From IMG/VR virus record IMGVR_UViG_3300011337_000132, positions 1-46,964 of that record: a DNA stretch of 46,964 nucleotides; one strand, given 5' to 3'. How positions within the stretch are numbered: the stretch's first letter is position 1; each line of letters begins with the position of its first letter. A model generated the notes under the pieces. That model ran no database searches. It saw nothing but the letters and a program-made list of their open reading frames with translations, and was not told the origin of the DNA. The stretch comes from a virus (taxonomy: Duplodnaviria > Caudoviricetes). Made by a program: the position numbers and the translations under genes. Shown piece after piece: positions 1-46,964 of this stretch.

Positions 1-343
1 CCAAGACAGCATCCTTCTGGATAGCTTTCTCAATCCTAGCATAGTCATGGTTCCCTGTTGTCATGATAAAGCGAGGTAGCTTCTTCTTAGTCTCGCGGAT
101 AGGCTTGAACATCAACTCCTGTGCGATGCAGGAAGCTTCGATATCCTTCTTGTACCTTCGTCCTTCGAAGCCCTTCGTACCCCTATCGTAGGAGCAGAGG
201 GAAGGCATGTCAGCCCAGTCACCAATGCAGATAACAGTATCAGGCTTGACACTAGCGATGAGTTTACCAAGGTAACTGAACCGTGACAAGTCCTCATCTG
301 GTGCTGCATGAGGATCAGGAATAATGAGATGAGTATTACTCAA
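1..343 (-). CDS. Metallophosphoesterase, 5' part only (truncated by window edge)
   Basis: Same sequence as the 5' end of 43462..44217. Confidence 0.85.
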   Translation of the reverse strand, partial: MSNTHLIIPDPHAAPDEDLSRFSYLGKLIASVKPDTVICIGDWADMPSLCSYDRGTKGFEGRRYKKDIEASCIAQELMFKPIRETKKKLPRFIMTTGNHDYARIEKAIQKDAVL

Positions 344-518
344 TAGCTATATCCTCTTCATCAAGAAGACCAACTGCAATGCAGAGGTCAACTTCCATTT
401 CCTCTAGTGCTTCAGCCCACTCAGTATCATCTTGGTACATATCACCATCATCATACTTTGTTTCGAGATAGACCTTAACGAGTGCCTTCAGTTCCTCAAA
501 CTCTTCTCTGATTGTCAT
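336..518 (-). CDS. Small acidic hypothetical protein
   Basis: 60 aa ORF, AGGAG SD upstream, overlaps start of downstream gene. Confidence 0.75.
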   Translation of the reverse strand: MTIREEFEELKALVKVYLETKYDDGDMYQDDTEWAEALEEMEVDLCIAVGLLDEEDIAIE

Positions 519-540
519 GATACTCTCCTATTAGAATGAA

Positions 541-616
541 TGGTGCTGGTAGTAGGACTCGAACCCACGACCTCCTGATTACAAATCAGATGCTCTACCA
601 ACTGAGCTATACCAGC
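541..616 (-). tRNA. tRNA-Thr(UGU)
   Basis: Cloverleaf: acceptor GCTGGTA/TACCAGC, anticodon loop TTTGTAA, TTCGAGT T-loop, encoded CCA. Confidence 0.95.
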
Positions 617-617
617 T

Positions 618-694
618 TGGCCTACCCTGCTGGACTCGAACCAGCGACCCATAGCTTAGAAGGCTATTGCTCTATCCAACTGAGCTAAGGGTAG
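618..694 (-). tRNA. tRNA-Arg(UCU)
   Basis: Cloverleaf: acceptor CTACCCT/AGGGTAG, anticodon stem ATAGC/GCTAT, loop CTTCTAA, encoded CCA. Confidence 0.95.
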
Positions 695-708
695 TTATCA
701 AATGATAA

Positions 709-1059
709 TTAATCTGGTACCCTACCGTAGTTCTTCTCAGTAGTTAGATACAGATACAAACGCTTTGCCATTTCTGCATCGTCTCTTAAGATCCTTCCAA
801 GAAGCACATGATTGCAGCGGTAACACAGCGCCCCTCGAATCTCTCCAGTCTTGTGATCGTGATCGACTGCAAGGTTTCTCCTTGGTCTGATCTTGTCAGG
901 ATGTCGTTGACATATAGCACAAGTTCCTCCTTGGAGTTGAAGAATCGTGTTGTATCCATCCTTTGTAAGACCAAAGTCTTTAAAGATTCTGCGCCATCTT
1001 GATGGGCTATCATTAAGTGGCTTCTTTGTCTTCGTAGACTTTCGGTTCTTCCTCAACAT
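709..1059 (-). CDS. Endonuclease VII family (Holliday junction resolvase-like)
   Basis: CAIC...LAVDHDHKTGEIRGALCYRCN motif; start codon uncertain. Confidence 0.9.
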   Translation of the reverse strand: MLRKNRKSTKTKKPLNDSPSRWRRIFKDFGLTKDGYNTILQLQGGTCAICQRHPDKIRPRRNLAVDHDHKTGEIRGALCYRCNHVLLGRILRDDAEMAKRLYLYLTTEKNYGRVPD

Positions 1060-1849
1060 GGGTCAGCCATACTGGGCCAGTACTATAGATAAACTTTCTA
1101 AGTGGTACATCTGAATAACATTCTTTCTTAAAGGAACAATAGGAACAACCAGTAGACAGCTTCATGTTACCGGACTTACCCATTGGTTCGGGTTCGAAGC
1201 AGCGAGTAGGGGGTGTCTCTTTACTAACTACTTCCTTAACGTAAGCTATCCTAGCGTTAATGTCTACCCTATCAGTATCTTGCAGTGTCATAACAGCGAT
1301 GTGACCATTCTGTTTGTCTACTGCTACGTAGGCACCATCGTTTATACCCGTACCAGTTAGGTACCCGGACAACTGGGGAATGTATGCGAAGGGATCATCG
1401 TTACGAAGGCTACCATCCTTAAACTTCTTAAAGGAATAAGGGGAGGTACTCTTTACATCGATTAGAACACCATCGATAACAGCATCAATGTGACCAACAA
1501 TACCATCAACAGTAACTTCTCGCTGTCGATCCGACACAGTGTGACCCGACACCTCAGCGAGGAATAGGACAACCTCTTCGATAATGTCACCATATAGGAA
1601 CTTAAGGTATGTCGGTCCATTAAAGTCTTCCTTTGGAATGGAACTGTTAACTTCATACCACAGCATACGATCAGGCTTGCCAATGTTAGACATCCTGAGT
1701 GTACGCTTCTCTGTCTTAGGCTTCATCCTGTCTTTGATTAGGCCAGCAAGACGATGCCCGAACTCAAGGCACGATGAGGTAATGTCCTCCTCAGTACCCT
1801 CTTCAAGTAGGTGGTGGATATCCTCAGCAAGGGTGTTAATAGAAGCCAT
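1013..1849 (-). CDS. PD-(D/E)xK Cas4-like exonuclease
   Basis: GHIDAVIDGVLIDVKS core, QLSGY, C-terminal CSYCSFKKEC. Confidence 0.85.
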   Translation of the reverse strand: MASINTLAEDIHHLLEEGTEEDITSSCLEFGHRLAGLIKDRMKPKTEKRTLRMSNIGKPDRMLWYEVNSSIPKEDFNGPTYLKFLYGDIIEEVVLFLAEVSGHTVSDRQREVTVDGIVGHIDAVIDGVLIDVKSTSPYSFKKFKDGSLRNDDPFAYIPQLSGYLTGTGINDGAYVAVDKQNGHIAVMTLQDTDRVDINARIAYVKEVVSKETPPTRCFEPEPMGKSGNMKLSTGCSYCSFKKECYSDVPLRKFIYSTGPVWLTHVEEEPKVYEDKEAT

Positions 1850-2199
1850 TACCTATTGTCTCCATTACCCTGTAGCGTACCATTCTCCTGCCTCTTGCCC
1901 AACTTCTCTAGATTATGTAGGGCAATTGAACTCATGGGGAAACCATGATGACTAGCAAGGCATGAGAGATACCAGAGAACATCACCCAGTTCTGCAAAGA
2001 TCTTCTCCTTAAACAAGGGAGTATAGTCTCCAAAGAAATGGTCAGACTCACTAGACCAGTACCGGGGATCACGCCGTGCTGCCTTCTGCATAAGGGACAT
2101 AACCTCACCAACCTCAGCAGCAAGGCCATAGGTAAGGTGATCCTCGCTATCTACAAGAAGGGTAGTAAGAGCCTTGTTCTGGTAGTCATCAAGGTCCAT
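1849..2199 (-). CDS. mazG: MazG-like NTP pyrophosphohydrolase
   Basis: YQxxA...GLAAEVGEV...ELGDVLWY...NLEKL..R...LQGNGDNR. Confidence 0.9.
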   Translation of the reverse strand: MDLDDYQNKALTTLLVDSEDHLTYGLAAEVGEVMSLMQKAARRDPRYWSSESDHFFGDYTPLFKEKIFAELGDVLWYLSCLASHHGFPMSSIALHNLEKLGKRQENGTLQGNGDNR

Positions 2200-2446
2200 C
2201 AGACAACTCCTTAATCAATCGGTTCAGGTACCACTGTGCCTTCTTGAGATCTTCTAGTGGCTTTTTCTTGTACCTCCAACGATGAAGATACTTCTTCGTG
2301 TTACCTTCGAGGTACCCAATGAATGTTTCGAAGGGCATGTTGTCCTTGAGGTAGTCGATGCACTCAACCCTACCAGAGTTGTAGTGGGAGGGAGACTCCA
2401 CAGAATCCCCCTCCTTCGGCATTTCGTCAACAGAGTAGTACATCAA
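2189..2446 (-). CDS. DUF3310 / T7 gp1.7-like nucleotide kinase domain protein
   Basis: VESPSHY..GRVECID...GNTKKY..R...KK..EDLKKAQWYL. Confidence 0.85.
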   Translation of the reverse strand: MMYYSVDEMPKEGDSVESPSHYNSGRVECIDYLKDNMPFETFIGYLEGNTKKYLHRWRYKKKPLEDLKKAQWYLNRLIKELSDGP

Positions 2447-3022
2447 TTAGGCTTCGATCTCAAACGATACCGACTTAGACTTCTTAGCCTTCACCTCAGG
2501 AGGCGGAAGTTCAGCAGACTTAGGGAAGGGATCAGCTTCTTCAGCGGTATCCATTGCATCAGCGAACTCGTTAGGCTTGCTGTACTCTACAAGCTCAACG
2601 ATCTTAAGCGCACCGAACTTCTTCTTCTTGTTCTCTTCGTCCCAGTCAAGCATCTTACCAAGCTTAATGACTTTACCATACTTCGGGGTATCGTAAACAC
2701 GCCAGTACACGATGCACTCAGAGTCGTTACCAATCAGTGCCTTCGAACGCTTACCATTCTGATCGATGATAACCATCTCAGATTCGAAGCCCTTCAAATC
2801 TACGACAGCATTACGAAGGGTGAGGAACTTACCACCATTGTTAATACGTTCCTTACCATCCTTGATCTTCTTATCAAGACGGAGTTCGATAAGCTTCTTC
2901 TCAATCTCAGGGGTAACAGCGAGGTTGATCTCGTAGTTACCAAACTGAGAAGGCTCCTGCACATGAGCGAAGTAAACCTTGGTACGAAACTCACCAGTAA
3001 TAGTCTTCGAAGCAGTAGTCAT
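2447..3022 (-). CDS. Single-stranded DNA-binding protein (gp2.5-like)
   Basis: Follows PolA; IGNDS motif; start moved to ATG 3022 because of GGAG SD and upstream promoter. Confidence 0.65.
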   Translation of the reverse strand: MTTASKTITGEFRTKVYFAHVQEPSQFGNYEINLAVTPEIEKKLIELRLDKKIKDGKERINNGGKFLTLRNAVVDLKGFESEMVIIDQNGKRSKALIGNDSECIVYWRVYDTPKYGKVIKLGKMLDWDEENKKKKFGALKIVELVEYSKPNEFADAMDTAEEADPFPKSAELPPPEVKAKKSKSVSFEIEA

Positions 3023-3054
3023 TCGAGTAGTCTCCGCTAGTTGTTGATAGTCAT

Positions 3055-3082
3055 ATATTATCATGTCTTGATAGATTGTCAA
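3055..3082 (-). promoter_or_regulatory. Sigma70-type promoter for SSB operon
   Basis: TTGACA-N16-TAATAT with TGn extension; in the diverged copy only spacer bases change. Confidence 0.7.
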
Positions 3083-4791
3083 TGTGTTTCTGCCCAGTTG
3101 TTACCGATCTTGTACTCACCATCTAGTGGGCAATTCAAATCGAAATGCTCACCAGTATCTATAATAGACTGGACTTGTAGCTTGCCTAACTCTTCTGCCT
3201 TGCTCTCCTCTGTTTCAGTCTGCCATTCGTCATGGACCCAGACTGTCTGCTTGAACTTGATCTTATTCTTCTTGGCCTGAGTATACCATAGATAGTTAGC
3301 CATACGCATGATGACTGTCTCACCACCTTGAAGGTAGACAGAGAGAGCCTTATGGTCTGACTCAATCTTGATACGCCTACCGTCAAGGCTGACAAGGTAC
3401 CCACGCTGTGCAGCCATAGCAGCCTTCCTCTTCAACTCCTTTAGTGCAGGAATAGAACGAAGGAAGTTATCCATAGCATCCCCGGCTTGACTAACAGAAC
3501 AGTTCAAGATCTGTGCTACCTTAGCCTGACCAGCACCAAGCAACCAAGCGTAGATGAATGTCTTAGCTGTTGGTCTATCCTTACAGTACTCACCTAGTGC
3601 ATTCTTATTAAAGGTATGAATGTCACCCTCAAGAAGAGTCTTCGTATACTCAGGGTCGTTCATGTAGTGGGCGAGTACACGAAGTTGTATTCCCGCAGCA
3701 TCTGTTCCAACCAGCTTAGAGCCTCTTGGGACAGTCCAAGCCTCTCTGCATTCGTATGCAAATAGTCCAGATAAGCCACGTTCTGTGGTGATAGAGGGGA
3801 TGTTTGCCATGTTTGGGTTCTGGTGTGAGGCTCTATGGGTAACGGTACCGGGAATGATAACTTGTCCGTGGACTCTACCATCTCCGTCCATTCTGTTAAG
3901 CCAGTCCTTTGCAGTCTTCCATCTTGTTTCAAGGATCTTCCATTTCTTTAGATCTTTAATACACTCTGGCATAGGGGTACCATCAGGCATACTATCAGGA
4001 ATAGTGTTAAGGTTTTCCTGACAGATCTTCCAAGACTTCCCCGTCTTAGTCTTCACTGTCGGCTTCCAACCAAGCTCATCAAGACGCTTTACTATTTGAT
4101 TTGGTGAGGCAAGGTTGAAAGACTCGACATCATCTTTAAGGCGCTTACCTGTCTTCTCTGAGTACCGCTCAGTGATGATAGGTGGGAAGAACTTTATAAC
4201 ACCTTCTTCGATACGGTTAGCCTCAGTTAATGCACCAGTATAAATGTTAAGTGCAACTTGTTTATCTAAAAGAAAACCATTTCTGATTTGCTCAGAGATA
4301 ATATACTGGGTTGCATGCTCAAGGCGAATAGACTCAGCAGAAAAGCAAAAGAGCATACGATTAAGGTGCTTATAGACATGCTCAGTAATCTTAACGTCTC
4401 TCTTGCAATACTGCTTCATCTCTTCTGAGTAGACGGAGAACTCCTTGAATTGGATCTTCGCTTCACCGAGACGGTTGCCCCATGCTTCCAGTGAGTGGCC
4501 GTCAAGAGTTGGCTCCCACATTCTTGACATGACAAGAGTGTCGGATTGTTTTCCGAGAGGGATAGTGACGCCCCACAGACGGGACAGGACAACCGAATCA
4601 AAGGCGATACTGTTGTGTCCGATCCATTCAGCGTCATCGTTGTCTTCATAAAAGGCTCTGAAGTTCTCAGCGTCCCGAAAGATATAGTATCCTTCTTTCC
4701 CAGCAAACTTCGCAACCAAGAGGTGAATAACTGTAGCGTCGAGGGCATCAGTCTCTATGTCCCATATAATTTTCCCAGTCGGTGATTGCAC
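3079..4791 (-). CDS. polA: Family A DNA polymerase with 3'-5' exonuclease domain
   Basis: DIETD exo I, GHNSIAFD exo II, motif A DAAGIQLR, motif B RPTAKTFIY, motif C VHDE. Confidence 0.97.
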   Translation of the reverse strand: MQSPTGKIIWDIETDALDATVIHLLVAKFAGKEGYYIFRDAENFRAFYEDNDDAEWIGHNSIAFDSVVLSRLWGVTIPLGKQSDTLVMSRMWEPTLDGHSLEAWGNRLGEAKIQFKEFSVYSEEMKQYCKRDVKITEHVYKHLNRMLFCFSAESIRLEHATQYIISEQIRNGFLLDKQVALNIYTGALTEANRIEEGVIKFFPPIITERYSEKTGKRLKDDVESFNLASPNQIVKRLDELGWKPTVKTKTGKSWKICQENLNTIPDSMPDGTPMPECIKDLKKWKILETRWKTAKDWLNRMDGDGRVHGQVIIPGTVTHRASHQNPNMANIPSITTERGLSGLFAYECREAWTVPRGSKLVGTDAAGIQLRVLAHYMNDPEYTKTLLEGDIHTFNKNALGEYCKDRPTAKTFIYAWLLGAGQAKVAQILNCSVSQAGDAMDNFLRSIPALKELKRKAAMAAQRGYLVSLDGRRIKIESDHKALSVYLQGGETVIMRMANYLWYTQAKKNKIKFKQTVWVHDEWQTETEESKAEELGKLQVQSIIDTGEHFDLNCPLDGEYKIGNNWAETH

Positions 4792-6931: not shown

Positions 6932-7090
6932 TTAATAGTCCTTCAGTTGCTGTTGAAAACTGTTGAGATATTCTTTTACCTTATAGATACCATCAAGTGC
7001 AACGAGATCACCAAGTGATACCTCTAAGACAGAGAGTAGTAGTTTCCTTCGTCGTTTCCTTACTGCTTCTTCTGCTTGTGTGTCAGTCAT
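6932..7090 (-). CDS. Small hypothetical protein (52 aa)
   Basis: Manual translation MTDTQAEEAVRKRRRKLLL...; ATGA overlap with upstream gene. Confidence 0.6.
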   Translation of the reverse strand: MTDTQAEEAVRKRRRKLLLSVLEVSLGDLVALDGIYKVKEYLNSFQQQLKDY

Positions 7091-7632
7091 GTGCGTTCTC
7101 TTGGACATAAGCCATCCTCATGACCAATTGAATGGACATCCATCTCACGATAGTCCAGTGCGGCGCGGGCGGCGGCTTTAATGGCCTCTCGCGCTTGATA
7201 AACACCATCCAGCAAGCCTGCCTCATAGCAGTCCTTGGGTGTCATTGCTGAGTAGTCGCGATCTGGCACCACCACATCAACATCCACTGTCGGCGCTTCA
7301 AGTAGGGCTGCGTTGATGCGCGTCAGCATCTTGCACTCCTCGCTGTCAGACCAAATCGCCGTCTTGGCGTGGCCCTGCCAGACCTTCACTTCGGCCTCAA
7401 GCTGCTGCATTCGTTTTGCCATGATGCAGAAGGTGGTGCCACCCTGACCGTAGACAAGGCCAGTCTTGCCGTCCGTGAACTCGCACTGCCATGTGGCAAG
7501 GGAGGCGTTCTCGGCCTCAAGCTGCTCAATGCGGTCGGCGGCTTCGTGCATCACCGTTCCTGCGGCAGGACATTCATAGCCGCTGCTAACCATAGGCCCC
7601 CAAGCCCGCAGCCTTTCCACAAGGTCACTCAT
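7087..7632 (-). CDS. Hypothetical coiled-coil protein, GC-rich
   Basis: MSDLVERLR...AADRIEQLEAE; GGAGG SD before 7632. Confidence 0.75.
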   Translation of the reverse strand: MSDLVERLRAWGPMVSSGYECPAAGTVMHEAADRIEQLEAENASLATWQCEFTDGKTGLVYGQGGTTFCIMAKRMQQLEAEVKVWQGHAKTAIWSDSEECKMLTRINAALLEAPTVDVDVVVPDRDYSAMTPKDCYEAGLLDGVYQAREAIKAAARAALDYREMDVHSIGHEDGLCPRERT

Positions 7633-7864
7633 CGCTGGCCTCCTGCTTCGGAAGGGGGAGGATGATGGATGGCTCCGCAAAATACTTGCCGTGGATCATC
7701 CCCGTCCAAGCGCCGAGCGCGGCTGTGATGGCGGCGCGGGCGTGAGCCTTGAAATAGGCGCAACCACACTCATCCGGGTAACAGCGGCAAGGCCCGCAGT
7801 GCGTCTCACAGATAGCCCTCGCCCCCGCCTCCAGCGCAGCCGGTGGGATGATGATGTCACTCAT
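7625..7864 (-). CDS. Hypothetical Cys-rich protein, GC-rich
   Basis: MSDIIIPPAALEAGARAICETHCGPCRC; GGAG SD. Confidence 0.7.
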   Translation of the reverse strand: MSDIIIPPAALEAGARAICETHCGPCRCYPDECGCAYFKAHARAAITAALGAWTGMIHGKYFAEPSIILPLPKQEASDE

Positions 7865-8057
7865 GATCTTCAACCTTAGCATCAACCTGAGGATGGAGAC
7901 ACAGAGCATTCCATTCGATGAACTCTCCCGCTTCCTTCTTCTTATCCAATGTCTCCGTTAGTGCTTCCTTTTCAGGACACACTGATAGTTCCTTACTGTG
8001 CAACTGTAACTCACCTTGGTTTGTAACTATTGCAAGGATTAATATCGCTACCTTCAT
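7857..8057 (-). CDS. Hypothetical protein with hydrophobic N-terminus
   Basis: MKVAILILAIV; AAGGAG upstream. Confidence 0.7.
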   Translation of the reverse strand: MKVAILILAIVTNQGELQLHSKELSVCPEKEALTETLDKKKEAGEFIEWNALCLHPQVDAKVEDHE

Positions 8058-8792: not shown

Positions 8793-9449
8793 TTATGCCA
8801 CCTTATTGACACGATTAACAATGAGATTGATCTTCTTCTTAGGTGTATGCAGTGGATAGACTACCAAAGAAGTAGACTTATCCCAACACGCACGACAAGG
8901 ACCACACTTACCACCGCGAGTATAAGCATCGCACATCTTTCCATTCTGAATTGTATCTGTAACTGACTGGACTACGACAGAGCCATGCTCACTGGTGTAC
9001 TCACCGTGTGTACTGGGTGAGGAGAACCGAACGGATACATTCGGCAACTCTCTGAGCCTATCCAACCAGTATCTAATCTTGGGAATGTTATAGGACTTAC
9101 TTGGTATCCAGTGATTACACCAAGGGGTACGCCTTGCTACCTCATGGATCTTCTGTGCTAGTGGAGCGGTATAGATGTCACCGCTATCGAACCAGCGAAA
9201 CCAACGCTCATTGTCTAGTGCTGCAACCATATCATCAGCCCAATCGGGACGCTTCCAATCCTTACGATTGGATAAGCGAGGGGCCTTGACATTATCCATA
9301 CGATAGAAGCCAGACTTAGCATAGCAATCAGCGCATACCTCGATGACTTCCTTAGTCAAAGGATTAATAGAACCGGGACAAGTATCCCCTGCTTGGAGGG
9401 ACCACGATTTACCCGGCATCTTACTCGCCTTACTAAGCAGGACAGGCAT
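8793..9449 (-). CDS. Gp88-like Cys-rich (putative Fe-S) protein
   Basis: SKMPGKSWSL...CPG...CADCYA...FRWFDSGD...C...CGPCRAC. Confidence 0.75.
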   Translation of the reverse strand: MPVLLSKASKMPGKSWSLQAGDTCPGSINPLTKEVIEVCADCYAKSGFYRMDNVKAPRLSNRKDWKRPDWADDMVAALDNERWFRWFDSGDIYTAPLAQKIHEVARRTPWCNHWIPSKSYNIPKIRYWLDRLRELPNVSVRFSSPSTHGEYTSEHGSVVVQSVTDTIQNGKMCDAYTRGGKCGPCRACWDKSTSLVVYPLHTPKKKINLIVNRVNKVA

Positions 9450-43478: not shown

Positions 43479-44217
43479 CTTTAATCCTGTCCATGCTAAT
43501 CCATTCATGGTCGTACATACCGTTGTGTACACCACGTTTAATGATTACTCCCGGCCACCACATCTTGTTAGCCTCCCCTGCATAGTCATGCTTCCTATCG
43601 ATGTAGCAACCTACGACTAGGCCCAGAAGTCTTCGTCCGTCAGGTCCAGTCCTCTCTGCGAAATCTCTAGTGTGAGTGTGGCCCTGCGTGCAGGATACGA
43701 ACTGCTTGGTGAGTAGAGTGTATGCTTGATGTTCACCGCTTGTAGCTCTACCCATGACCCCCGTTGGGAAATAGTGAGCGTAATAAACACCATCGACTTC
43801 AACAGGTTCCAGAAAAGGATAAGCTTCCCAGCCAAAGTCTTCGTATTGTAGATCCTGTACGGAGATGGTTCCATCCAAGACAGCATCCTTCTGGATAGCT
43901 TTCTCAATCCTAGCATAGTCATGGTTCCCTGTTGTCATGATAAAGCGAGGTAGCTTCTTCTTAGTCTCGCGGATAGGCTTGAACATCAACTCCTGTGCGA
44001 TGCAGGAAGCTTCGATATCCTTCTTGTACCTTCGTCCTTCGAAGCCCTTCGTACCCCTATCGTAGGAGCAGAGGGAAGGCATGTCAGCCCAGTCACCAAT
44101 GCAGATAACAGTATCAGGCTTGACACTAGCGATGAGTTTACCAAGGTAACTGAACCGTGACAAGTCCTCATCTGGTGCTGCATGAGGATCAGGAATAATG
44201 AGATGAGTATTACTCAA
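43462..44217 (-). CDS. Calcineurin-like metallophosphoesterase
   Basis: DPH, GDWAD, GNHD, H, QGHTH motifs. Confidence 0.9.
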   Translation of the reverse strand: MSNTHLIIPDPHAAPDEDLSRFSYLGKLIASVKPDTVICIGDWADMPSLCSYDRGTKGFEGRRYKKDIEASCIAQELMFKPIRETKKKLPRFIMTTGNHDYARIEKAIQKDAVLDGTISVQDLQYEDFGWEAYPFLEPVEVDGVYYAHYFPTGVMGRATSGEHQAYTLLTKQFVSCTQGHTHTRDFAERTGPDGRRLLGLVVGCYIDRKHDYAGEANKMWWPGVIIKRGVHNGMYDHEWISMDRIKDEFRT

Positions 44218-44392
44218 TAGCTATATCCTCTTCATCAAGAAGACCAACTGCAATGCAGAGGTCAACTTCCATTTCCTCTAGTGCTTCAGCCCACTCAGTA
44301 TCATCTTGGTACATATCACCATCATCATACTTTGTTTCGAGATAGACCTTAACGAGTGCCTTCAGTTCCTCAAACTCTTCTCTGATTGTCAT
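44210..44392 (-). CDS. Small acidic protein (copy of 336..518)
   Basis: Identical translation. Confidence 0.75.
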   Translation of the reverse strand: MTIREEFEELKALVKVYLETKYDDGDMYQDDTEWAEALEEMEVDLCIAVGLLDEEDIAIE

Positions 44393-44414
44393 GATACTCT
44401 CCTATTAGAATGAA

Positions 44415-44490
44415 TGGTGCTGGTAGTAGGACTCGAACCCACGACCTCCTGATTACAAATCAGATGCTCTACCAACTGAGCTATACCAGC
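44415..44490 (-). tRNA. tRNA-Thr(UGU), repeat copy
   Basis: Same as 541-616. Confidence 0.95.
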
Positions 44491-44491
44491 T

Positions 44492-44568
44492 TGGCCTACC
44501 CTGCTGGACTCGAACCAGCGACCCATAGCTTAGAAGGCTATTGCTCTATCCAACTGAGCTAAGGGTAG
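44492..44568 (-). tRNA. tRNA-Arg(UCU), repeat copy
   Basis: Same as 618-694. Confidence 0.95.
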
Positions 44569-44582
44569 TTATCAAATGATAA

Positions 44583-44933
44583 TTAATCTGGTACCCTACC
44601 GTAGTTCTTCTCAGTAGTTAGATACAGATACAAACGCTTTGCCATTTCTGCATCGTCTCTTAAGATCCTTCCAAGAAGCACATGATTGCAGCGGTAACAC
44701 AGCGCCCCTCGAATCTCTCCAGTCTTGTGATCGTGATCGACTGCAAGGTTTCTCCTTGGTCTGATCTTGTCAGGATGTCGTTGACATATAGCACAAGTTC
44801 CTCCTTGGAGTTGAAGAATCGTGTTGTATCCATCCTTTGTAAGACCAAAGTCTTTAAAGATTCTGCGCCATCTTGATGGGCTATCATTAAGTGGCTTCTT
44901 TGTCTTCGTAGACTTTCGGTTCTTCCTCAACAT
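44583..44933 (-). CDS. Endonuclease VII (repeat copy)
   Basis: Identical translation. Confidence 0.9.
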   Translation of the reverse strand: MLRKNRKSTKTKKPLNDSPSRWRRIFKDFGLTKDGYNTILQLQGGTCAICQRHPDKIRPRRNLAVDHDHKTGEIRGALCYRCNHVLLGRILRDDAEMAKRLYLYLTTEKNYGRVPD

Positions 44934-45723
44934 GGGTCAGCCATACTGGGCCAGTACTATAGATAAACTTTCTAAGTGGTACATCTGAATAACATTCTTT
45001 CTTAAAGGAACAATAGGAACAACCAGTAGACAGCTTCATGTTACCGGACTTACCCATTGGTTCGGGTTCGAAGCAGCGAGTAGGGGGTGTCTCTTTACTA
45101 ACTACTTCCTTAACGTAAGCTATCCTAGCGTTAATGTCTACCCTATCAGTATCTTGCAGTGTCATAACAGCGATGTGACCATTCTGTTTGTCTACTGCTA
45201 CGTAGGCACCATCGTTTATACCCGTACCAGTTAGGTACCCGGACAACTGGGGAATGTATGCGAAGGGATCATCGTTACGAAGGCTACCATCCTTAAACTT
45301 CTTAAAGGAATAAGGGGAGGTACTCTTTACATCGATTAGAACACCATCGATAACAGCATCAATGTGACCAACAATACCATCAACAGTAACTTCTCGCTGT
45401 CGATCCGACACAGTGTGACCCGACACCTCAGCGAGGAATAGGACAACCTCTTCGATAATGTCACCATATAGGAACTTAAGGTATGTCGGTCCATTAAAGT
45501 CTTCCTTTGGAATGGAACTGTTAACTTCATACCACAGCATACGATCAGGCTTGCCAATGTTAGACATCCTGAGTGTACGCTTCTCTGTCTTAGGCTTCAT
45601 CCTGTCTTTGATTAGGCCAGCAAGACGATGCCCGAACTCAAGGCACGATGAGGTAATGTCCTCCTCAGTACCCTCTTCAAGTAGGTGGTGGATATCCTCA
45701 GCAAGGGTGTTAATAGAAGCCAT
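44887..45723 (-). CDS. Cas4-like exonuclease (repeat copy)
   Basis: Identical translation. Confidence 0.85.
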   Translation of the reverse strand: MASINTLAEDIHHLLEEGTEEDITSSCLEFGHRLAGLIKDRMKPKTEKRTLRMSNIGKPDRMLWYEVNSSIPKEDFNGPTYLKFLYGDIIEEVVLFLAEVSGHTVSDRQREVTVDGIVGHIDAVIDGVLIDVKSTSPYSFKKFKDGSLRNDDPFAYIPQLSGYLTGTGINDGAYVAVDKQNGHIAVMTLQDTDRVDINARIAYVKEVVSKETPPTRCFEPEPMGKSGNMKLSTGCSYCSFKKECYSDVPLRKFIYSTGPVWLTHVEEEPKVYEDKEAT

Positions 45724-46073
45724 TACCTATTGTCTCCATTACCCTGTAGCGTACCATTCTCCTGCCTCTTGCCCAACTTCTCTAGATTATGTAGGGCAAT
45801 TGAACTCATGGAGAAACCATGATGACTAGCAAGGCATGAGAGATACCAGAGAACATCACCAAGTTCTGCAAAGATCTTCTCCTTGAACAAGGGAGTATAA
45901 TCTCCAAAGAAATAGTCAGCCTCACTAGACCAATACCGGGGATCATGCCGTGCTGCCTTCTGCATAAGGGACATAACCTCCCCTATTTCAGCAGCAAGGC
46001 CATAGGTAAGATGCTCTTCGGTAGCTACAAGAAGAGTAGTAAGAGCCTTGTTCTGATAATCATCAAGGTCCAT
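45723..46073 (-). CDS. mazG: MazG-like protein (variant copy)
   Basis: Several substitutions vs 1849..2199. Confidence 0.9.
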   Translation of the reverse strand: MDLDDYQNKALTTLLVATEEHLTYGLAAEIGEVMSLMQKAARHDPRYWSSEADYFFGDYTPLFKEKIFAELGDVLWYLSCLASHHGFSMSSIALHNLEKLGKRQENGTLQGNGDNR

Positions 46074-46320
46074 CGGATAACTCCTTAATCAATCGGTTCA
46101 AGTACCACTGTGCCTTCTTGAGATCTTCAACAGGCTTCTTCTTATACCTCCAACGATGGAGATACTTCTTTGTGTTACCTTCGAGGTACCCAATAAAGTT
46201 ATCATAGGGCATGTTGTCCTTGAGGTAGTCGATGCACTCAACCCTACCCGAGTTGTAGTGGGAGGGAGACTCCACTGAATCCCCCTCCTTAGGCATTTCG
46301 TCAACAGAGTAGTACATCAA
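46063..46320 (-). CDS. DUF3310 protein (variant copy)
   Basis: PYDNF vs PFETF etc. Confidence 0.85.
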   Translation of the reverse strand: MMYYSVDEMPKEGDSVESPSHYNSGRVECIDYLKDNMPYDNFIGYLEGNTKKYLHRWRYKKKPVEDLKKAQWYLNRLIKELSDGP

Positions 46321-46893
46321 TTAGGCTTCGATCTCAAACGAGATAGACTTGGACTTCTTTGCCTTCACCTCAGCAGGAGGAAGTTCAGCAGACTTAGGGA
46401 AGGGGTCTTCCTCAGCGGTATCCATTGCATCAGCGAACTCGTTAGGCTTGCTATACTCTACAAGCTCAACGATCTTGAGGGTACCAAACTTCTTCTTCTT
46501 GTTCTCTTCATCCCAGTCAAGCATCTTGCCAAGCTTGATGACTTTACCATACTTAGGGGTATCGTAAGCCCGCCAGTACACGATGCACTCGGAGTCATTA
46601 CCAATCAAAGACTTCGTACGCTTACCGTTCTGATCGATGATAACCATCTCAGACTCAAAGCCCTTAAGATCCACGACAGCATTACGAAGGGTGAGGAACT
46701 TACCACCATTGTTAATGCGTTCCTTCCCACCTTTGATCTTACCATCAAGACGGAGTTCGATAAGCTTCTTCTCAATCTCAGGGGTAACAGCGAGGTTGAT
46801 CTCGTAGTTACCAAACTGAGAAGGCTCCTGCACATGTGCGAAGTAAACCTTGGTACGGAACTCACCAGTAATAGTCTTCGAAGCAGTAGTCAT
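46321..46893 (-). CDS. SSB (variant copy)
   Basis: One codon shorter than 2447..3022. Confidence 0.65.
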   Translation of the reverse strand: MTTASKTITGEFRTKVYFAHVQEPSQFGNYEINLAVTPEIEKKLIELRLDGKIKGGKERINNGGKFLTLRNAVVDLKGFESEMVIIDQNGKRTKSLIGNDSECIVYWRAYDTPKYGKVIKLGKMLDWDEENKKKKFGTLKIVELVEYSKPNEFADAMDTAEEDPFPKSAELPPAEVKAKKSKSISFEIEA

Positions 46894-46964
46894 TCGAGTA
46901 GTCTCCGCTAGTTGTTGATAGTCATATATTATCATGTCTTGGTATATTGTCAATGGGTTTCTGC

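Follow-up and report, generated by a model that had tools for sequence, protein, structure and literature searches.

The Polymerase Locus and Its Genome

The window, meaning the whole stretch of 46,964 nucleotides analysed here (IMG/VR virus record IMGVR_UViG_3300011337_000132), carries on its minus strand a single-copy polymerase gene, the sole family A polymerase of the phage. The ORF (3079-4791) matched the Pfam family DNA_pol_A with an E value of 1e-41. Its features are as follows.

3079..4791, minus strand: PolA, a T7-like family A DNA polymerase of 570 aa, with 3'-5' exonuclease and polymerase domains
4396..4761, minus strand: proofreading exonuclease carboxylates D11, E13, D65 and D132, all retained (codon check)
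3832..3837, minus strand: TGR motif, present as THR, with H319 (T7 G428) and the invariant R320 (T7 R429)
3679..3702, minus strand: motif A, DAAGIQLR, with catalytic D364 at 3700-3702 and gate Q369 at 3685-3687 (T7 E480, E. coli E710)
3535..3564, minus strand: motif B, KTFIYAWLLG, with K410, Y414 at 3550-3552 (T7 Y526, position 762) and L418 at 3538-3540 (T7 Y530, E. coli Y766)
3319..3342, minus strand: helix Q (motif 6), with S484 at 3340-3342 (T7 N611), Y486 at 3334-3336 and conserved Q488 at 3328-3330 (T7 Q615)
3319-3321, minus strand: new Glu of helix Q, E491 (T7 G618), coupled to Q369 (alignment to T7)
3226..3234, minus strand: motif C, H520-D521-E522, intact (alignment, codon check)

The top fold matches of the AF2 model (mean pLDDT 96.8) were T7 gp5 structures, with TM values of 0.83-0.89, and helix Q was found within a helix spanning residues 479-508. 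The catalytic Asp residues in motif A and motif C are kept, and so are the exonuclease carboxylates, of which E13, D65 and D132 are invariant among 119 aligned relatives. The Klenow-type exonuclease and polymerase fold, nearest to T7 gp5, is that of the T7-like cluster 5; a Tyr at position 762 of motif B (B3) is given as a feature of this cluster in the accessible text of PMC10201439, and Y414 (T7 Y526) supplies it, as the initial annotation had said. The enzyme thus resembles T7 gp5 in its fold, its proofreading domain, the Tyr at 526 and the equivalents of D475, K522, R429, Q615 and the HDE motif, but differs in E480>Q, Y530>L, N611>S, G618>E and G428>H and in the missing thioredoxin-binding insert (38 residues opposite T7 246-333 in a local alignment to gp5).

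The contig was found to be a complete circular phage genome of ~43,874 bases with a 3,090-base wrap-around overlap. The two copies of the overlap (1-3090 and 43875-46964) are identical over the first 1,937 bases and then show 80 mismatches and small indels; the mismatches are mostly synonymous in MazG, DUF3310 and a 211-aa ORF, and this looks like two strains merged by the assembler. Gene content was read from 60 of the 168 ORFs of at least 60 aa, and from 38 by Pfam, and comprised a primase/helicase, PolA, a Cas4-like exonuclease, endonuclease VII and an opposed structural arm. It also included the four genes named from the sequence before, which are MazG, DUF3310, a metallophosphoesterase and an RNR, here assigned to class II (ORF scan, Pfam). 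The failure to recognise a thymidylate synthase was likewise borne out, with none among the 60 of 168 ORFs scanned and a best E value of 0.25 for five tblastn queries against the whole window. Two tRNA genes, tRNA-Thr(TGT) and tRNA-Arg(TCT), lie in the replication arm at 541-694, with a copy at 44415-44568. Two unannotated ORFs at 7087-7909 have a GC content of 56% against 45% for the genome and are possibly a recent acquisition. A GP88 (PF17338) protein is encoded in the early arm at 8793-9449, and homologues occur at other loci with the variant polymerase, such as L032 and L113.

The nearest cultured polymerases were those of SIO1, ICBM1, ICBM3 and P12053L, at 54-56% identity. The accessible part of PMC6775973 describes the Cobavirinae by a SIO1-like PolA and primase/helicase, an RNR that depends on cobalamin, two opposed arms and no RNA polymerase. 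The window has the SIO1-like PolA and primase/helicase, the cobalamin-dependent RNR and the opposed arms, and no RNA polymerase family was matched among the 60 of 168 ORFs scanned. The PolA proteins of SIO1 and ICBM1/ICBM2 (Zobellviridae, Cobavirinae; 55% identity to SIO1) share Q369, Y414, L418 and E491 with the window, and these phages also share the order primase/helicase-PolA, the class II RNR and the two opposed genome arms. In contrast to them, the window has no ThyX, two tRNAs and a motif B Trp where they have Phe; ICBM1/2 are given as having no tRNAs in the accessible text of PMC6775973. ThyX (tblastn, whole window), PhoH and glutaredoxin (ORFs scanned) of the ICBM1 type were not found; these genes and the lack of tRNAs are listed ICBM1 gene contents and not formal criteria of the Cobavirinae. 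The phage is accordingly called a cobavirus-like podovirus, and cobavirus-like only.

Substitutions in the Nucleotide Pocket

The initial annotation had placed a Gln at the steric gate and a Leu at the motif B Tyr, and these assignments to positions 710 and 766 were confirmed by a gap-free local alignment to T7 gp5 and by MAFFT, which agreed. Window residues D364, Q369, K410, Y414 and L418 correspond to T7 D475, E480, K522, Y526 and Y530, and further toward the C-terminus S484, Q488, E491 and D521 correspond to N611, Q615, G618 and D654. The canonical pair of Glu710 and Tyr766 is therefore replaced by Q369 and L418. The E. coli numbers 766, 845, 849 and 852 are those that we take to apply by standard motif equivalence; the helix Q site becomes 852 when counted from T7 Q615 = Q849, and the E. 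coli residue at 852 is Ala. The equivalence of T7 E480 with E. coli E710 is stated in the accessible text of bioRxiv 10.64898/2026.05.20.726624. The codon of E491 (3319-3321) falls outside the segment 3530..3705 to which the pocket change had been ascribed.

SIO1, ICBM1, ICBM2 and P12053L have Q369, Y414 and L418 in common with the window, and all four signature codons vary synonymously with unchanged amino acids among 54 viral loci related to the window, which excludes sequencing error or chance. Motif A was the same as in the window in 119 of the 120 closest database proteins, the remaining one being a fragment that lacks motif A.

Coupling of the Gate to Helix Q

Covariation was evaluated in an alignment of the best 150 cluster representatives at 50% identity and six references, in which 152 of 156 rows were complete at six scored positions and four were left out because of gaps. 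Glu618 was present in 118 of 118 rows with Gln or His at 480 and in 0 of 34 rows with Glu480. All 34 Glu480 rows had Tyr530, Asn611 and Gly618, while the 118 variant rows (gate Gln in 111, His in seven) had Tyr530 or Asn611 in none and carried Leu (97), Phe (8), Asn (7) or Met (6) at 530. Positions 480, 530, 611 and 618 gave the strongest association among all alignment columns scanned. In 228 fetched loci, Glu618 accompanied the Gln in each of the 77 complete rows with that gate, the window among them, and Gly618 accompanied the Glu in each of the 143 complete rows of the other kind; this count leaves out seven rows that were partial and one in which a base was ambiguous. Two other candidates for an obligate partner were rejected as merely enriched, namely the His of the TGR motif (95 of 118 variants, 4 of 34 canonical) and Tyr486 (aromatic or His there in 91 of 118 variants, 0 of 34 canonical). 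A sub-state with a His gate, Asn766 and the helix Q Glu was found in P0164, P0178, P0218, P0220, P0228, P0241 and P0251, six of which form one clade, the seventh being possibly separate.

The association was also found in bacterial-type Pol I. Metagenome contigs were scanned with a bacterial-type motif A carrying Gln, a pattern that is blind to helix Q, and 57 matches were obtained, 48 in frame and 44 reaching motif C. The helix Q Glu was present in 43 of these 44 (the exception, L293, has Ala), although the matches fall into eight groups at 60% identity, the largest with 30 members, and 43 sequences are not 43 events. Position 766 was Tyr in 33 of the 43 and Phe in two, with eight outside the search pattern (two inspected were Phe), and Asn845 was retained by all 43. 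These counts imply that Gln710 is accompanied by the new Glu and that the loss of Tyr766 is optional.

At the level of the alignments, then, a gate Gln or His (T7 480) and a Glu on helix Q (T7 618) demonstrably occur together, in phage lineages as well as in bacterial-type Pol I. The proposal of a co-evolved, remodelled pocket was upheld, but its pairing of Gln710 with Leu766 as obligate partners was not, since 766 is Leu, Phe, Met or Asn in phage variants and often Tyr in bacterial-type Pol I, and Gln710 tracks E491 instead. The alignment check suggested for Gln/Leu covariation gave the same divided outcome: in phages the Gln occurs clade-wide without Tyr530, but Tyr766 is kept by 33 of 43 bacterial-type enzymes. 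Because those 33 retain Tyr766 beside Gln and Glu, Leu766 is, on sequence grounds, secondary to the pair of Gln710 and the new Glu.

Distribution and State Changes

The Gln gate and L766 are common to the cultured cobaviruses SIO1, ICBM1, ICBM2 and P12053L. Further cultured phages with the variant are CRP-4, CRP-9, CRP-13, CRP-7, Kolga, RIO-1, Vibrio 172P1, Erwinia Pecta and the Felixounavirus heid. The swap recurs across RIO-1, a Felixounavirus and the HTVC/CRP phages, which are separate lineages, and also among bacterial-type Pol I. The heid polymerase domain has 302 phage records at a match of at least 60%, the motifs having been read in heid alone. Canonical residues were found in Kuravirus, rV5-like phages, ICP1, Bjorn, LUZ100, Slicky01 and HTVC103P, and in LUZ24-like phages by motifs A and B only. 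Some members show further deviations: heid (L234:450-3170) has, next to Phe766, its Gln gate and the helix Q Glu, a Met in place of the conserved minor-groove Gln (T7 Q615), while RIO-1 (L243:430-2469) and Kolga (L230:2062-3885) have, in a single alignment, Leu at 762 beside the Gln gate. Exonuclease and polymerase are annotated as separate genes in ICBM2 (L004:1983-3894) and in T5S1-k141_653015 (L066:2206-6804), in the latter several kb apart.

In the first polymerase-domain tree, one branch parted the canonical from the variant rows. A single origin of the variant fitted that tree and failed after more lineages (prophage and MAG loci) were joined. Three loci with Gln, Leu, Gly and Glu (L181, L201 and L220) were found to be sister to the canonical P0266, with 54-57% identity, a support of 100 and a private indel in common, and an AU test on 58 hand-picked rows rejected a single variant clade (p 0.007). 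With cultured phages included, the 72 rows comprised 38 with Gln or His, each with Glu618, 33 with Glu, each with Gly618, and VpV262, which aligned ambiguously; three state changes were forced by starred branches and five were counted on the best tree. The trees are quick LG+G4 trees of hand-picked rows with long branches, in which the direction of change is unsettled case by case; starred branches supply only two independent pairs (sign test p 0.5). An apparent reversion in P0239 was an alignment artefact, and the exonuclease-domain tree had too little resolution for use. Nevertheless, these phylogenies establish that the state of gate and helix Q, as read from sequence, has switched more than once. 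Such repeated independent origin could mean that a new property was selected for, and not that the two states are neutral equivalents.

Proposed Mechanism and Alternative Explanations

In the accessible text of PMC3715850, E710 is described as blocking the 2'-OH and hydrogen-bonding Y766, although a minor role is assigned to this hydrogen bond. In Klenow E710Q, according to the same text, closed-state binding of the correct dNTP is weakened ~280-fold (Kd2 of 230 vs 0.83 uM), and closing on rUTP is not favoured (K2 of 0.056, against 0.083 for the wild type and 0.16 for E710A). The accessible part of PMC10520511 describes the Bst equivalents of Q849, R668, E710 and D882 as close and electrostatically linked, and that of PMC3241644 reports a contact between the gate Glu and the Pol gamma equivalent of R668 in the apoenzyme.

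Against this background, the most probable reading is that the nucleotide pocket has been rebuilt, with compensation, in an ordinary dNTP replicase that proofreads and is the only family A polymerase of its phage. Gln, equal in size to Glu, would remain packed against the sugar C2' and so exclude rNTPs. E491, three residues beyond Q488, would lie on the helix face that holds Q615 and N611 in T7, where it is predicted to anchor Q369 and restore the lost negative charge. Its carboxylate may serve as hydrogen-bond acceptor for the Q369 amide, pair with R320, or both, in place of the canonical Glu-Tyr bond. With that bond lost, the Tyr hydroxyl and N611 would be freed to drift to L/F/M and to S/A/G/V in phages. 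The His/Asn sub-state fits this mechanism, as His could likewise donate to a carboxylate. A direct contact between Q369 and E491 and a normal sugar selectivity would follow. The signs of a working enzyme are the intact catalytic and proofreading residues and the presence of the variant in cultured lytic phages. The Klenow mutants E710Q, E710A and Y766A/F (accessible text of PMC3715850) offer the closest engineered comparison: E710Q shares the gate substitution and closes poorly on rUTP, but the engineered single mutants are crippled mutators, whereas the natural enzymes add the helix Q Glu.

It is possible, if rather unlikely, that the compensated swap tunes the enzyme toward looser sugar discrimination, lower base fidelity or a changed dNTP affinity, selected for instance at low dNTP pools. 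E710Q and Y766A are mutators in Klenow and side-chain size at 766 is said to affect the shape of the pocket (accessible text of PMC3715850), N845A reduces fidelity (accessible text of PMC10520511) and the variant clade alters all three sites 710, 766 and 845; furthermore, the state arose more than once, as expected under selection. Tuning is opposed by the E710Q enzyme, in which closing on rUTP is not favoured (PMC3715850, as above), by the invariant proofreading residues and by the occurrence of variants beside RNR of class I as well as class II, whether or not a thymidylate synthase is present. Since the swap is found in marine phages, enteric phages and bacterial-type Pol I and in mixed RNR and thymidylate synthase settings, no single ecological driver is visible. 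It is doubtful that sugar selectivity itself has been altered by evolution, which would make these enzymes fast PolA proteins tolerating rNTPs or 2'-modified nucleotides, would predict ribonucleotide-rich genomes in abundant marine phages and in Felix O1-like phages, and would let one second-site Glu restore efficiency to Klenow E710Q, which is crippled by itself.

That Gln369 and Glu491 co-occur without touching, with Glu491 acting indirectly by charge or space filling through R320, water or helix packing, appears very unlikely. The invariant Gly at 618 in T7-like canonical enzymes possibly serves helix packing and not a polar role, which would suit such an arrangement; however, phage variants always carry Glu, never Asp or Gln, across clusters below 50% identity, and this suggests a geometrically specific interaction.

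A pocket suited to some modified nucleotide, be it dU, dZ or another base, whose pool MazG, DUF3310 and the phosphoesterase would shape, is scarcely credible; the initial annotation had raised modified-nucleotide use and had mentioned these genes and the lack of a recognised thymidylate synthase. The window genome does lack that synthase while encoding MazG and the phosphoesterase, and about twenty early ORFs without a family leave a small opening. However, the same pocket occurs in SIO1, ICBM1 and ICBM2 (all with ThyX) and in CRP-13, which encode a thymidylate synthase, so that the link between the Gln gate and its absence was rejected; bacterial-type Pol I also carry the swap. ThyX-type genes were present at 17 of the 82 variant loci and at 14 of the 143 canonical ones, as counted in partial flanks. 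Pfam assignments for 64 neighbour proteins of 19 variant loci included ThyX, ThyA, MazG, PhoH, nucleases, UDG, amidoligases, RNA polymerase and, at one locus (L201), a dATP/dGTP diphosphohydrolase domain that would favour pool shaping; 39 had no family, and no base-modification family common to the loci was recognised in this set. DpoZ of the Z-DNA phages (clusters 18/19, accessible text of PMC10201439) has also naturally lost Tyr766, but to Phe, and the window PolA scored 52 bits against the DpoZ model, with a cut-off of 500. PurZ and other modification families were not found among the 60 of 168 window ORFs scanned. A uracil-DNA glycosylase gene (L060:7888-8613) lies just upstream of a Gln-gate PolA and has a homologue in L061. 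The Felixounavirus isolate Bas63, a genus relative of heid with a different genome, is described as remarkably sensitive to several restriction systems (accessible text of PMC8594841).

A degenerate or mis-assembled gene, for which the 80 mismatches between the contig ends and the strain mix might speak, has a negligible probability and is already refuted by close homologues and cultured phages with identical motifs and by synonymously varying signature codons.

Implications for Family A Polymerases

The Gln gate with its helix Q Glu is a real and widespread form of the active site in T7-like PolA, and apparently one that has not been described. VpV262 and PaP1 Gp90, which we took to be possible characterised Gln-gate enzymes, were both set aside: VpV262 has canonical Glu/Tyr, and so does Pakpunavirus PaMx12, read in place of PaP1. 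No description of a natural Gln gate or of the helix Q Glu was found in the full-text literature searched, most subscription papers being beyond reach and the motif logos of PMC10201439 being a place where Gln might be shown; nor was any biochemical study of the SIO1, ICBM1 or ICBM2 PolA, or any assay of another variant enzyme, found in that literature. The variant probably represents a functional remodelling of the pocket that evolved repeatedly, and not a sign of exotic DNA, and Gln710 in viromes is a poor mark of modified DNA. The swap separates the steric role of the gate from its charge role, and the natural variants offer scaffolds for polymerase engineering. E710 and Y766 are called universally conserved in family A polymerases (accessible text of PMC3715850); natural replicases, among them those of cultured SIO1-like phages and of a Felixounavirus, break this rule by way of one recurring second-site Glu.
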